From IMG/VR virus record IMGVR_UViG_3300042691_050360, positions 64,001 through 128,000 of that record: a stretch of 64,000 bases of DNA. One strand, written 5' to 3'. Below are positions 11,975 to 39,777 of this stretch, one piece after another (the stretch's first letter is position 1; each line of letters starts with the position of its first letter). This DNA is from a virus. Under the pieces are notes generated by a model. The model was not told where the DNA came from, made no database searches, and saw nothing but the letters and a program-made list of their open reading frames with translations. The translations under genes were made by a program, and so were the position numbers.

Positions 11975-13105
11975 ATGATTAAATTAAATGCAAACATCGG
12001 CGGTTTACGCCCCAATTTTACTGATAAAGAATACGCTGAATTTATCTCGAAGCTGGAAAACCTAGTACCCGGAAGCTCTGTTCGATTTGGCTCGATCTTT
12101 CACGAGATTTTCTGGAACCCAGAAGATCTGGGTAATTTTAAAGGGCTTGACAAGGTTCTAGAAATCTGCAGAGATAGACAGCTTCAACCTTTGATTTTAG
12201 TGATGCCTACGCCTCATCCAACATCTGGCTGGTACAAAACTGCTAAAAACAGAGACGGCTGGTGGTTGCCTAATGAAGAGTTGATTCCTAAACTAGCTGA
12301 GAAGACTGATGTTTTGGTTAAGCGAGTTCTCGCTAAGTGTAAAGAATTTAAGCTTGAGCCAACTTGGCAGCTGTGGAATGAGCCAGCGGGCAAAGCTTTT
12401 AGCACAGTTACAGGTCACAATCTTGGTAATAAACCAGGGGGGAGTTCTACATCGAAATATGGTGAATGGACGTTAACCCTGCATAAGCTTCTTTGGGAAA
12501 CAAGCCAAGTGTTAAGAAATAATAAGATACCCACCAGTAAAATAATGTCACCGGCTTTCTCTTGTATAGGGGATGGTAACATCCAAGAAGTAAGTGAGGT
12601 TCTCACCTGGATACCACCTAGCGAATATAATTGGCAAAAGAATTGTGGCGTGATAGCCTGCCATCTTTTTTTCAGAGCAGGTTGGGCACAGGATCCAAAA
12701 ACAAGAACAACGGAAGTAACAAATGGGTTTAACGCATCAATGAATTACTTTAAATATTTTGTTGCTAATTTAAGACTTCCTAAGTCTAAGAAAATTGTTA
12801 TTACAGAGTTTTATGTGACACCAGGGATGTGCGGCGTGTTAACTACAGCTAACCCTGAACAGCTTGATCCTTTTAGAACAATTGCATTCGATTTGCTGGC
12901 TAAAGAAAAAATCACCAGTTTTGTTTATGGAATTGGCGACGAAAATGATTCTCCTGGCACTTATTGGCTTGCATACGGCGGATGGAGTCAATGGTTGAAG
13001 AAGAAGAATGCGGCTATTTCGGGCGGATTTAATTCATCTCCTGCTACTGGTGGATTTAATTCATCTCCCGCCACTGGTGGTATCAGCACTTCGCCTGTTA
13101 AGTGA
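11975..13105 (+). CDS. Putative clan GH-A glycoside hydrolase (TIM barrel)
   Basis: WQLWNEP (acid/base) and IVITEF (nucleophile) motifs; C-terminal GGFNSSPAT repeat. Confidence 0.65.
   Translation: MIKLNANIGGLRPNFTDKEYAEFISKLENLVPGSSVRFGSIFHEIFWNPEDLGNFKGLDKVLEICRDRQLQPLILVMPTPHPTSGWYKTAKNRDGWWLPNEELIPKLAEKTDVLVKRVLAKCKEFKLEPTWQLWNEPAGKAFSTVTGHNLGNKPGGSSTSKYGEWTLTLHKLLWETSQVLRNNKIPTSKIMSPAFSCIGDGNIQEVSEVLTWIPPSEYNWQKNCGVIACHLFFRAGWAQDPKTRTTEVTNGFNASMNYFKYFVANLRLPKSKKIVITEFYVTPGMCGVLTTANPEQLDPFRTIAFDLLAKEKITSFVYGIGDENDSPGTYWLAYGGWSQWLKKKNAAISGGFNSSPATGGFNSSPATGGISTSPVK
13022..13080 (+). repeat. 27-bp tandem repeat (about 2 copies) encoding GGFNSSPAT
   Basis: ggcggatttaattcatctcctgctact / ggtggatttaattcatctcccgccact. 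Confidence 0.85.
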
Positions 13106-13150: not shown

Positions 13151-14006
13151 AGGAATTATACTTGCTGGCGGAACTGGTTCTAGATTATATCCAGCCACAC
13201 AATCTGTCAGCAAGCAACTTCTCCCCGTATACGACAAGCCGATGGTTTATTATCCTTTGTCTATTTTGATGAGGGCGGGAATTCGTGATGTTTTAATAAT
13301 CACCACACCGCATGAGCAGAGCTTGTTTCGCAATCTTCTAAAGGATGGTTCTCAATGGGGAATGAGCATTTCATATGAAGTTCAGGCTTCTCCAAATGGT
13401 TTAGCTCAGGCCTTTCTGATTGGAGAGAGATTTATCAATTCCGAGCCTGTGGCTTTGATTCTAGGCGACAATATCTTCTACGGTGGCAATCTGATGAGCG
13501 AGTGTGAGAAGGCTGTAGAAAGAGATTGTGCTACTGTGTTTGCATATCGTGTGAATGAGCCCGAGCATTATGGAGTGGTTGAGCTCGATAAAAAGAATAT
13601 TCCTTTGAGTATCGTAGAGAAGCCGAGCGATCCTAAATCAAATTATGCTGTTACGGGCTTGTACTTCTACGATTCAGATGTTGTTGAAATTGCTAAGAGC
13701 GTGAAACCATCTGAAAGAGGGGAGCTAGAGATTACATCTGTCAATAATGAATATTTAAATCGAGGGAGGTTGGCTGTAGCAAAATTGTCACGGGGATGCA
13801 CTTGGTTTGATGCGGGTACTTTCGACAATTTGCTTGAAGTAAGTAATTATATTGCATCAATTCAAAACAGGCAAGGATTAATTATTGCAAGCCCAGATGA
13901 AATTGCTTTTAGAAACAATTGGATTACACAATCTGAGCTAGATGATTTGATAAATTCTTATGGTAAAAGCTTATATTCTAAGCAATTAAGATTGAGTTTA
14001 GATTGA
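13140..14006 (+). CDS. rfbA: Glucose-1-phosphate thymidylyltransferase
   Basis: KGIILAGGTGSRLYP..SKQLLPVYDKPMVYYPLS, LGDNIFYG, RGELEIT, WFDAGT. Confidence 0.97.
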   Translation: MIGKGIILAGGTGSRLYPATQSVSKQLLPVYDKPMVYYPLSILMRAGIRDVLIITTPHEQSLFRNLLKDGSQWGMSISYEVQASPNGLAQAFLIGERFINSEPVALILGDNIFYGGNLMSECEKAVERDCATVFAYRVNEPEHYGVVELDKKNIPLSIVEKPSDPKSNYAVTGLYFYDSDVVEIAKSVKPSERGELEITSVNNEYLNRGRLAVAKLSRGCTWFDAGTFDNLLEVSNYIASIQNRQGLIIASPDEIAFRNNWITQSELDDLINSYGKSLYSKQLRLSLD

Positions 14007-36359: not shown

Positions 36360-36434
36360 TGGAGCTCATGGCTAGAATCGAACTAGCTACATTCCTTTTG
36401 CAGAGGAAGCCGTTTGCCAATTGGGTACATGAGC
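36360..36434 (-). tRNA. trnC: tRNA-Cys(GCA)
   Basis: ttcct-CTGCAAA-aggaa; U discriminator; CCA. Confidence 0.9.
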
Positions 36435-36600: not shown

Positions 36601-36698
36601 TGGCACCCATTCATGGATTCGAACCACAATTAACTCTTCCTTACTGGGCACCTTGATGCACAGAAAAGAGAGTTGTCCTGCCTTTAGACGAAATGGGT
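36601..36698 (-). tRNA. tRNA with 24-nt anticodon-loop insertion, most likely Gln(TTG); Glu or Lys alternatives
   Basis: Intact acceptor, D and T arms; stem actct/agagt encloses 31 nt; removing 24 nt can give CTTTGGA. Confidence 0.65.
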
Positions 36699-36704
36699 GT
36701 GAAA

Positions 36705-36776
36705 TGGTGTTGCCCGAGGAATTGAACCCCGCCTTCTCCCGCGAAGAGACGCTCTACCAACTGAGCTAGAAGCAAC
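36705..36776 (-). tRNA. Degenerate tRNA-like gene with shortened anticodon arm, identity undetermined
   Basis: tagctcagttggtagagc D arm, ggttcaattcc T arm, CCA; arm tctc-TTCGCGG-gaga. Confidence 0.5.
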
Positions 36777-36784
36777 ACAAGAAA

Positions 36785-36811
36785 TGGAGGAGGGAAGAGG
36801 TTTCGAAACTT
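36785..36811 (-). pseudogene. 3' fragment of a tRNA (T loop to CCA)
   Basis: ttcgaaa-cctct-tccctcc-t-cca without a 5' half; abuts the endonuclease ORF. Confidence 0.55.
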
Positions 36812-37508
36812 GGTATATGTAAATATGCTGTCAAACAACATTACTAGAGAGTTCCTACAAAAGTTCAAGTCCCGTGAAAGAGTGCCTTTAGTGTGTTTCG
36901 TATGTGGCGGAGATTTTTTACGCCCTAAAAACGATCTACTAAATTCTTTATCCTTGGGACGTAATATAGTTTGTCAAAGATTATGTGGATATAACCACTG
37001 GTTGCTGGCAACCAACCGAGGTAAGGATCATTGTGTTTGCCAGGTATGTGGCACTGAATACGTCAGATCACGATCTCAAGTGGCGAGAACTCCAAATAAG
37101 TTTTGCTCTAAATCTTGCTCAGTAACGTGGCAAAACAAACACAAAACCACCGGTTACCGACGTTCCAAACTTGAGAAGTATCTTGAAGAAAAGATTCGCA
37201 AAGAGTTTCCAGCTTTACAGTTTGAAGCTAATTGCCGGTCTGTCATTGATTACGAACTTGATTTCTATTTTCCGACTTTGAAGTTCGCAATAGAAGTAAA
37301 CGGGATTACGCACTATCGTCCTGTTTACAGCGAAGCCCGGTTCAAGCGTACAAAGGAGATTGACGCTGAAAAGAAATTACGTTGCAGTGAACTAGGTATC
37401 ACCTTGTATGTGATACCTAATACCATTCATGCCTTTACAGCTGAATTCGGGGATATAACATGGAGTGAGATGCTGGATTCAGCTGTAAGCCCGCTACGGC
37501 CTACTTAG
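36810..37508 (+). CDS. Zinc-finger plus PD-(D/E)xK (Vsr/DUF559-like) endonuclease, probable homing endonuclease in the tRNA array
   Basis: CFVCG, CQVCG, FCSKSC; SKLE...ELDFYFP.LKFAIEVNG..HY; antisense to the tRNAs. Confidence 0.75.
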   Translation: MVYVNMLSNNITREFLQKFKSRERVPLVCFVCGGDFLRPKNDLLNSLSLGRNIVCQRLCGYNHWLLATNRGKDHCVCQVCGTEYVRSRSQVARTPNKFCSKSCSVTWQNKHKTTGYRRSKLEKYLEEKIRKEFPALQFEANCRSVIDYELDFYFPTLKFAIEVNGITHYRPVYSEARFKRTKEIDAEKKLRCSELGITLYVIPNTIHAFTAEFGDITWSEMLDSAVSPLRPT

Positions 37509-37540
37509 ATTAGCAATATAGCTCAGCACACCCAATATCC
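37450..37540 (-). pseudogene. Degenerate copy of tRNA-Ser(GCT) overlapping the endonuclease 3' end
   Basis: Shares ggata..tggagt..gat, acttagattagcaat and aatatcc with 37640..37730. Confidence 0.55.
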
Positions 37541-37548
37541 TCAAAATA

Positions 37549-37636
37549 TGGTGGGGAATGTAGGATTTGAACCCACGGAACCTTTCAGTCCTGCTGTTTT
37601 CAAGACAGCTGCAATCGGCCTCTATGCGAATTCCCC
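37549..37636 (-). tRNA. trnS: tRNA-Ser(TGA)
   Basis: gctgt-CTTGAAA-acagc; long variable arm; CCA. Confidence 0.9.
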
Positions 37637-37639
37637 GTA

Positions 37640-37730
37640 TGGCGGATACACTGGAGTACGATTCCAAAGCCTTTTACAGCCCACTTAGATTAGCAATCTA
37701 GTCCGGCAAACCTGTCCGGTTGTAATATCC
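37640..37730 (-). tRNA. trnS: tRNA-Ser(GCT)
   Basis: taga-TTGCTAA-tcta; long variable arm; atypical D and T loops; CCA. Confidence 0.8.
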
Positions 37731-37737
37731 TTAAATC

Positions 37738-37813
37738 TGGTGCTCCCCTCCGAGTACGATCCGGAAACCTTCCCATCTTCAGCGGGACGCTCTACCAATT
37801 GAGCTAGAGAAGC
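37738..37813 (-). tRNA. trnF: tRNA-Phe(GAA)
   Basis: tcccg-CTGAAGA-tggga; CCA. Confidence 0.9.
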
Positions 37814-37821
37814 ACATAATC

Positions 37822-37913
37822 TGGAGCGAGATGAGAGATTCGAACTCTCAAAATCTGCTTCCTGTAATGAGATCACAGGAAGGCAGGCGTTTTACCATTA
37901 AAACTAATCCCGC
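37822..37913 (-). tRNA. trnG: tRNA-Gly(TCC) with 17-nt anticodon-loop insertion
   Basis: GCGGGAT acceptor, U discriminator; cctgc-CTTCC[tgtgatctcattacagg]AA-gcaga. Confidence 0.8.
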
Positions 37914-37918
37914 TCACT

Positions 37919-37938
37919 TATTTAATTGTCAAAGAACA
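37919..37938 (-). promoter_or_regulatory. boxA-like element between terminator and first tRNA of array 1
   Basis: tgttctttgacaattaaata; ttgacaattaaata is identical at 40051..40064. Confidence 0.5.
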
Positions 37939-37942
37939 TAAT

Positions 37943-38002: not shown

Positions 38003-38065
38003 CTAGCCATTACCCTGAAGGGTTGACCACATAAAGCATCCTTGACTAAATTGCGAATTTCTCAT
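38003..38065 (-). CDS. Leader peptide 1 (MRNSQFSQGCFMWSTLQGNG) of tRNA array 1 attenuator
   Basis: SD AGGA 9 nt upstream; codons 4-14 match downstream tRNAs; its ccttcagggt is complementary to the terminator 5' arm. Confidence 0.8.
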   Translation of the reverse strand: MRNSQFSQGCFMWSTLQGNG

Positions 38066-39617: not shown

Positions 39618-39694
39618 TGGTGTCGTGTGAAAGACTCGAACTTTCAAATTTCAGGTTCTCAACCTGTTGCCTCTACCAATTTGGCTAACACGAC
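39618..39694 (-). tRNA. trnL: tRNA-Leu(GAG), short variable loop
   Basis: cagg-TTGAGAA-cctg; CCA. Confidence 0.85.
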
Positions 39695-39697
39695 GTT

Positions 39698-39777
39698 TGG
39701 TACCAGCGGCGAGATTCGAACTCGCAAAAGCTACGGTTCTAAACCGTATTGTTGTACCATTCACTTGCCACGCTGGT
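39698..39777 (-). tRNA. trnL: tRNA-Leu(TAG), short variable loop
   Basis: tacgg-TTTAGAA-ccgta; CCA. Confidence 0.85.

Follow-up and report, generated by a model that had tools for sequence, protein, structure and literature searches.

The window analysed here, a stretch of 64,000 nucleotides (nt) corresponding to bases 64001-128000 of a 166.5-kb IMG/VR virus contig, carries two arrays of transfer RNA (tRNA) genes on its minus strand (between positions 36360 and 39958), in which a tRNA-Gly(UCC) and a tRNA-Gln(UUG), hereafter tRNA A and tRNA B, are interrupted within the anticodon loop by hairpin-forming inserts of 17 and 24 nt, respectively (Table 1). The feature is real and belongs to a kind that is poorly understood. 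The reading that we favour, with a probability of roughly 40%, is that A and B are working-type tRNAs, whose inserts would be removed after transcription by proteins. Both genes are present on the minus strand where the original prediction had placed them; their proposed identities and insert sizes are borne out by homology, and the anticodon is indeed buried in an extended stem. The CCA end is encoded in every tRNA of the arrays, and ARAGORN skips A and B in its default mode and detects both in its intron mode alone. Two ENA assemblies obtained independently from other samples, L034 and L035, contain the same 3.7 kb with both inserts at 100% identity; the inserts are thus not an assembly artefact, and the lineage with the interrupted tRNAs circulates with identical sequence in several samples. 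The contig (38% G+C) is rated 46% complete and its relative G002, which measures 347 kb, is rated 99% complete, from which it follows that the window derives from a jumbo phage of about 350 kb.

Table 1. Interrupted tRNA genes and associated features; positions refer to the window.
Feature	Position	Strand	Basis
tRNA A, tRNA-Gly(UCC) gene with encoded CCA	37822..37913	-	Rfam tRNA, ARAGORN intron mode, orthologues
17-nt insert of A, TGTGATCTCATTACAGG, between C36 and A37	37861..37877	-	17-column gap opposite L056 CTTCC-AA in three-way alignment
Extended anticodon arm of A: 4 bp native stem, bulged C32, 10 bp, CUC loop	37854..37887	-	Fold
tRNA B, tRNA-Gln(UUG) gene with encoded CCA, broken inside the anticodon	36601..36698	-	ARAGORN intron mode, Gln family model R1
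24-nt insert of B, TCTGTGCATCAAGGTGCCCAGTAA, between U35 and G36	36641..36664	-	R1 alignment, family loops
Extended anticodon arm of B: 6 bp, bulged A38, 4+3+4 bp with two mismatches, CAAG loop	36632..36674	-	Fold
Free-standing homing endonuclease, 232 aa, antisense between A and B	36810..37508	+	PHROG phrog_559 (5.5e-17), phrog_9084, phrog_3339 (homing/HNH)
20-codon leader open reading frame (ORF) upstream of the array; CAA twice, GGA once	38003..38065	-	Translation; matching leaders in relatives

tRNA A matches the Rfam tRNA model RF00005 with 47.8 bits (gathering score 29). It consists of the acceptor strand GCGGGAT, a D arm, the anticodon stem CCTGC/GCAGA, which closes 24 nt rather than 7, a variable loop of 4 nt, the T arm GAGAG-TTCGAAT-CTCTC, the acceptor strand ATCTCGC, U73 and CCA; it thus has G1-C72, C2-G71, G3-C70 and U73, which are the bacterial Gly identity elements. 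At the locus of A, the tRNA-Gly(UCC) of the relatives L056 and L097 is uninterrupted, measures 75-76 nt and has the loop CTTCCAA; it is preceded by the same leader, terminator and spacer and followed by the same tRNA-Phe. Comparison with these insert-less relatives leaves a clean gap opposite the insert of A, whose placement cannot slide because the flanking bases differ from the end bases of the insert. The extended anticodon arm folds with -17.9 kcal/mol (z = -6.13; none of 200 shuffled sequences was as stable), and the fold reproduces the predicted extension of 10-11 base pairs (bp). Furthermore, four compensatory changes that affect both sides of a stem pair (5-68, 12-23, 50-64 and 51-63) distinguish A from the insert-less allele, which indicates that both alleles have a long history as folded tRNAs. 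The idea that the hairpin tip of A provides a new anticodon loop (AUCUCAU) was rejected, since B has no equivalent 7-nt loop, and the labels Arg(CCT) and Leu(AAG), which ARAGORN assigns to the interrupted tRNAs, are artefacts of its fixed intron position.

tRNA B has no match to the general Rfam tRNA model at E <= 1, and its identity rests on a phage tRNA family that shares its D arm. The gene is composed of the acceptor strand ACCCATT, the D arm GTCT-AAAGGCA-GGAC, the anticodon stem ACTCT/AGAGT enclosing 31 nt, TAAT, the T arm TGTGG-TTCGAAT-CCATG, the acceptor strand AATGGGT, G73 and CCA. Its exact D arm, UCGUCUAAAGGCAGGAC, was found at 27 phage loci in a scan of IMG/VR. These loci represent 20 distinct tRNA sequences, all of which are tRNA-Gln with the anticodon UUG or CUG and a variable loop of 4 nt; their anticodon loops include CTTTGAA, TTTTGGA and TTTTGGT, several have G37, and one member reads exactly CTTTGGA. 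A covariance model built from 18 members of this family (R1) scores B with 49.9 bits (E = 6e-17), making it the top match in a 6-kb region, above every other tRNA there. In the R1 alignment, CUUU is followed by 27 nt that replace 3 model positions and then by the 3' stem; as the extra bases are thereby placed after CUUU, the 24-nt insert interrupts the loop at 35/36, and the mature loop of B would be CUUUGGA. The extended arm of B folds with -15.3 kcal/mol (z = -2.92), and 3 of 200 shuffled sequences were as stable. G73 of B is likewise found in 10 of the 18 aligned family members. Assignments of B as tRNA-Glu, based on its Glu-like D arm, or as tRNA-Lys(UUU) are ruled out by the match to the Gln family and by synteny. 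In L097 and in a further relative, L032, the slot between Ala(CGC) and Val/Ile is occupied by a tRNA-Gln(UUG) with the loop TTTTGGC (G37), which is not a direct orthologue of B. This tRNA-Gln (L032 12692-12778, minus strand; L097 9823-9909, plus strand) is 87 nt long owing to a 16-nt variable region, AGACAGAAATGCTCGT, which is unusually long for a tRNA-Gln and identical in the two otherwise differing phages.

Outside the inserts, the bodies of A and B are intact: all stems are paired, the T loop TTCGAAT, G18 and G19 as well as CCA are present, and the spacers in the array measure 4-8 nt, like those of the neighbours. When the boundaries fixed by homology are placed on the folds, the same geometry is obtained for both genes, with the 3' junction located 2 bp and the 5' junction 4 bp past the native stem. 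In A, C32 is bulged, U33-A38 and U34-A37 are paired, and C35 and C36 pair with the last two bases of the insert; in B, A38 is bulged, C32-G37 and U33-G36 are paired, and the partners of U34 and U35 are the final two bases of the insert. Without the bulges, the junction offsets would be 3 and 1, and it is their location on opposite strands (C32 in A, A38 in B) that makes both offsets 2. The junctions thus lie at a constant distance from the tRNA body, and the distance to the hairpin tip is 6 bp in A and around 9 bp in B. The string C-TGTG...AGG-AA, which had been noted as common to both genes, is literally present in each, but does not occupy equivalent places: the distance from the CUGUG letters to the junctions is not constant, the letters lying 2 bp further out in B, and the string is not a common splice motif. 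As the junctions face each other across the helix with an offset of 2 bp, cuts at these sites would leave a 2-nt 3' overhang on the hairpin and on the tRNA, which is the product geometry of RNase III-class enzymes. A common 2-nt stagger rule derived from two cases is suggestive only. The inserts were also considered as copies of a repeated mobile hairpin element, which was rejected since no further copies are present in the 166 kb. L032 encodes a barnase/RNase T1-family ribonuclease of 139 aa (PF00545; 17575-17994, minus strand) around 4 kb from its tRNA array; guanine-specific cutting by such an enzyme was discarded, because the junction bases do not fit.

From these features, we infer a possible route of insert removal, together with its enzymes and the end chemistry. 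Within the transcript of the array, base pairing of the insert with the anticodon would extend the anticodon stem to a helix of 15-17 bp. A double-strand-specific endonuclease would then cleave the 3' strand 2 bp and the 5' strand 4 bp past the native stem, which results in a 2-nt 3' stagger; this enzyme would be of the RNase III class and probably provided by the host. The hairpin would be released, and an RNA ligase could reseal the two tRNA halves, which remain associated through their acceptor and anticodon stems; A would thereby obtain the loop CUUCCAA and B the loop CUUUGGA. About half of the confidence that we place in protein-dependent removal applies to an RNase III-type cut as its mechanism. 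A more general proposal, which is rather unlikely, would be that phages of bacteria possess protein-spliced tRNA introns of a minimal hairpin type. Such introns would pair with the anticodon and be excised by an RNase III-type cut with a 2-nt stagger measured from the tRNA body, a novel ligase would restore the anticodon loop, and the introns would persist or spread by shielding the tRNA gene from homing endonucleases that target tRNA arrays.

Evidence that A might be in use comes from L032, whose flanks are 93-98% identical to those of L056, and which carries a 60-nt tRNA-Gly-like relic (13803-13862, minus strand), followed by an HNH gene, at the place of A. The relic possesses a perfect 7-bp acceptor-like stem (GCGGCGT/ACGCCGC), a hairpin and a TTCGATT loop, and has neither a D arm nor CCA. 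Its T arm is of the allele type of A, unlike that of L056, and its hairpin comprises 17 nt at the same position as in A, 11 of which match in sequence. The agreement in length and site argues that the hairpin is older than the split of A and the relic; the two hairpins are likely homologous, which is the premise of the following argument. The relic is only around 54% identical to A, and A retains every stem pair and every conserved base. Since the relic has decayed and A has remained intact since the split, A seems to have been under purifying selection while carrying its insert, as far as can be judged from the comparison of these alleles. Decay, one of the four options that the original prediction raised without choosing among them, therefore describes the related allele in L032, but the intact body of A argues against it here.

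Codon usage and the leader ORF point in the same direction with different weight. GGA accounts for 34% of the Gly codons and CAA for 66% of the Gln codons of the phage, each being the commonest for its amino acid, and the same slots in the relatives retain Gly(UCC) and Gln(UUG). The GGA and CAA codons of the leader, which had been taken as consistent with functional tRNAs, are present; however, the argument is weak, since the leader of L032 retains GGA beside its relic tRNA-Gly. The leader ORFs (window 38003-38065, minus strand; L056 12624-12692, plus strand; L032 13960-14028, minus strand) vary partly in step with the content of the arrays: a leader ATT occurs where tRNA-Ile(GAU) occurs and is absent in the window. 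The match is imperfect, as L032 has GGA without a working tRNA-Gly and CGA where the others have CAA.

Several observations weigh against splicing. Profile searches for processing enzymes covered the 166-kb fragment (46% of the genome) and the 99%-complete relative G002. In neither was RtcB, an Rnl2-type ligase or RNase III found, nor was there a match to the tRNA-intron/splicing endonuclease (PF01974), in line with the expectation that an archaeal-type splicing endonuclease is absent. An Rnl1-type ligase was also not found, which is a weak negative as the profile control matched no reference genome; the sole ligase found in G002 is an ATP-dependent DNA ligase. The option of phage-encoded splicing, for which a search for RtcB, RNA ligases and endonucleases had been proposed, thus gains no support, and the nuclease would have to be the host's or belong to an unknown family. 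RNase III generates 5'-phosphate and 3'-OH ends, which cannot be joined by bacterial RtcB; an Rnl-type ligase would be needed, and the failure to find one in the fragment or in G002 is the main gap of the model. The 6 bp between the proposed cut and the loop in A are short for classical RNase III substrates, and we estimate a chance of roughly 1 in 5 to 1 in 10 for an accidental match of both geometries. Furthermore, interrupted forms are rare: pattern scans with the exact halves of A, or with the Gly anticodon arm allowing an insert of 8-38 nt, revealed no other interrupted tRNA-Gly of this type, B is the sole interrupted one among the IMG/VR phage tRNA-Gln with its D arm, and a longer-gap scan of the Gln family identified no further interrupted member. 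A scan of bacterial genomes for interrupted genes gave one match, a Chryseolinea tRNA, which is merely 2 nt longer and contains no insert. In B, the first acceptor pair is A1-U72, which in all 18 aligned family members is U1-A72, so that the pair is kept in reversed orientation. The close relative L032 survives without this tRNA-Gly. Finally, to our knowledge, protein-dependent tRNA splicing is held to be an archaeal and eukaryal trait and is not known in bacteria or phages, and all bacterial tRNA introns are self-splicing.

The strongest competitor, less probable than splicing but to be taken seriously, is that the inserts are inactivating lesions. According to this explanation, A and B are dead or dying genes that have not yet decayed, perhaps nuclease-resistant or co-converted alleles from homing-endonuclease cassettes, and the phage manages without both tRNAs. 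L032 would represent the end state, with a hairpin-bearing relic beside an HNH gene in a relative that lives without this tRNA, and the failure to find splicing enzymes in the fragment and in G002 and the rarity of interrupted forms are consistent with lesions. The surroundings of the array fit as well. The homing endonuclease gene between A and B, which may be connected with the origin of these alleles, has no counterpart in the uninterrupted arrays of L097 and L056, and its 3' end overlaps a decayed second copy of a tRNA-Ser(GCU) gene (window 37455-37545, minus strand). This copy has GGATATT...ATTGCTAATCTAAGT.GGC in common with the other one, contains a disrupted T arm and terminates in CCCGA; as the endonuclease gene ends inside it, a duplicated tRNA fragment forms the boundary of the nuclease cassette. 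Relatives of the L032 HNH protein directly adjoin tRNA-Gly in three other phage contig groups. Within B, the T stem contains two G-U pairs, which, together with the reversed first acceptor pair, could indicate incipient decay. What speaks against lesions is that A should have decayed like the L032 relic and instead has all stem pairs and conserved bases intact. Likewise, anticodon-pairing helices and a junction stagger common to both genes are unexpected for random lesions, which would also have hit precisely the readers of the most-used Gly and Gln codons of the phage.

The HNH family of L032 was found on unrelated contigs at L128 2868-3639, L134 1473-2244 and L136 3001-3653, where a tRNA-Gly(UCC) is located upstream and a tRNA-Gly(GCC) overlaps the HNH stop codon; the tRNA-Gly(UCC) genes of L128 (1600-1684) and L134 (1473-1551) have variable regions of 14 and 12 nt, respectively. 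The relic of L032 lies around 60 nt upstream of the HNH start, as do the tRNA-Gly genes in L128 and L134, and the relic may be part of a mobile cassette. The endonuclease of the window and the HNH protein of L032 were considered as relatives, which was rejected as they have only a short Cys motif in common. A plausible conjecture is that tRNA loops gain or retain small insertions because these protect against nucleases that target tRNA genes, and that the allele of A stems from such a cassette. Two other phage contigs contain interrupted tRNAs: L104 (698-838) carries a gene of 141 nt with a tRNA-shaped insert that has its own T arm, and L112 (4781-4879) a gene of 99 nt with an insert of around 22 nt, which lengthens the anticodon stem and has ambiguous boundaries.

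Improbable, but better than the last alternative, is a function of the unspliced RNAs themselves, which might act as decoys or sponges that sequester host anticodon nucleases or defence proteins binding tRNAs, or as stored pro-tRNAs that only an active nuclease would release. Phage tRNA arrays have been proposed as a countermeasure to tRNA-targeting defences, and in A and B the acceptor, D and T parts and CCA are intact with the anticodon buried in a stable helix; even the L032 relic retains its perfect 7-bp acceptor-like stem, hairpin and T-like loop. However, the L032 element folds no better than shuffled sequences (z = -0.9), the sequence points to no particular partner, and the same slots in uninterrupted relatives contain ordinary decoding tRNAs. 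Moreover, the junction geometry and the exact restoration of a 7-nt loop would be purposeless in a decoy. That the inserts are self-splicing or self-cleaving RNAs, for instance degenerate group I introns or small ribozymes, is very improbable: homing endonucleases are encoded nearby and group I introns do occupy anticodon loops of bacterial tRNAs, but the inserts are plain hairpins without a match to any Rfam intron or ribozyme family even at E <= 1, and 17 and 24 nt are far below any self-splicing core that we know of, as had been anticipated for group I and II introns.

The wider setting of the arrays was characterized as well. The 166.5-kb contig has few PHROG matches and several homing endonucleases. 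No close relatives of this phage were found in the phage GenBank collection, the dCMP deaminase loci L001-L029 revealed no synteny with the window, and an amidase query against IMG/VR gave no match; relatives were reached through the methyltransferase that adjoins the array, and L056 and L097 through a conserved 21-nt spacer and the 5' half of tRNA-Val. The scan with the conserved spacer gave 57 matches, among which L056 was the only true relative. A 22-nt spacer, ATGTTCTTTGACAATTAAATAA, separates the leader terminator from the first tRNA (window 37921-37942, minus strand; L056 around 12759-12780, plus strand; L032 around 13878-13899, minus strand), is invariant although the surrounding phage DNA is only around 76-81% identical, and contains TTGACA without a -10 box at the right distance. 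An unannotated tRNA of 91 nt, which ARAGORN misses, is located between Phe and Ser(UGA) (window 37640-37730, minus strand). It has the acceptor stem GGATATT/TGTATCC, G73, CCA, the anticodon loop TTGCTAA (Ser-GCU), a long variable region and the T loop ATCGTAC; the AGT codon of the leader fits this tRNA-Ser(GCU), a cleaner copy of which is found in the relatives (L032 12960-13042, tRNA-Sec-like by Rfam with 42 bits). The tRNA-Leu(GAG) and tRNA-Leu(UAG) called by ARAGORN (window 39618-39777, minus strand) have variable loops of 5-6 nt and no long arm of bacterial tRNA-Leu.

The value of this locus is that the insert boundaries are fixed by uninterrupted relatives, and that the common cut geometry names an enzyme class that can be tested. 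If splicing takes place, it would constitute a new route of RNA processing and ligation in bacterial cells and would account for phage tRNA genes that are currently dropped by annotation pipelines. If the genes are dead, the locus documents the erosion of phage tRNA arrays by homing endonuclease traffic. The inserts of A and B are the smallest and simplest in phage tRNAs that are known to us.

Searches of open papers revealed no bacterial or phage tRNAs described as carrying bare hairpin inserts. Conserved introns of phage tRNAs that lack an explanation are, however, in print and provide a precedent for A and B: tRNA genes of Lak megaphages contain 'enigmatic' introns without an Rfam hit, the closest published case, which are conserved across cohorts (Devoto et al. 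2019, PMC6784885, Table S6), and a 2026 survey describes intronic sequences in jumbo-phage tRNAs (PMC13037316). Four of the Lak introns listed in Table S6 are 79-114 nt long and have tRNA-like T arms of the GGTTCGAATCC type (PMC6784885). Like the inserts of A and B, the Lak introns reside in the anticodon loops of phage tRNAs including Gly(UCC), belong to no Rfam family, have no known splicing route and are patchily distributed among relatives. Unlike the Lak introns, some of which look like nested tRNAs, the inserts of A and B are bare hairpins of 17 and 24 nt without a T arm, pair with the anticodon and are located at 36/37 and 35/36.

Intervening sequences of bacterial 23S rRNA (helices 25 and 45) are excised by RNase III. 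They resemble A and B as hairpin extensions of a helix in a stable RNA with a patchy distribution among relatives, and they are removed by staggered double-strand cleavage, which is only proposed for A and B. The rRNA pieces are not rejoined and the ribosome works in fragmented form, whereas decoding is lost in a tRNA with a broken anticodon loop, and A and B would therefore require ligation. Archaeal and eukaryal tRNA introns, which are spliced by the splicing endonuclease together with RtcB or Trl1, are likewise short, pair with the anticodon region and lengthen the stem, and would share with A and B the dependence on proteins if the proposal holds. They are inserted at the canonical site 37/38 and form a bulge-helix-bulge motif with two 3-nt bulges around a 4-bp helix; in contrast, A and B have junctions at 36/37 and 35/36 in a continuous helix with an offset of 2 bp and without 3-nt bulges. 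Group I introns, such as that of bacterial tRNA-Leu(UAA), also occupy sites within or beside the anticodon, have a patchy distribution and occur in association with homing endonucleases; however, they are self-splicing and at least 200 nt long, whereas the inserts of A and B are smaller by a factor of ten and lack a catalytic core. The tRNA repair system of phage T4, consisting of Pnkp and Rnl1, mends damage inflicted by a host nuclease, and the searches of the fragment of the present phage and of G002 revealed no ligase of the Rnl1, Rnl2 or Pnkp type. An activity of this kind would supply the missing step, the resealing of a cleaved anticodon loop in a tRNA whose stems keep it together.

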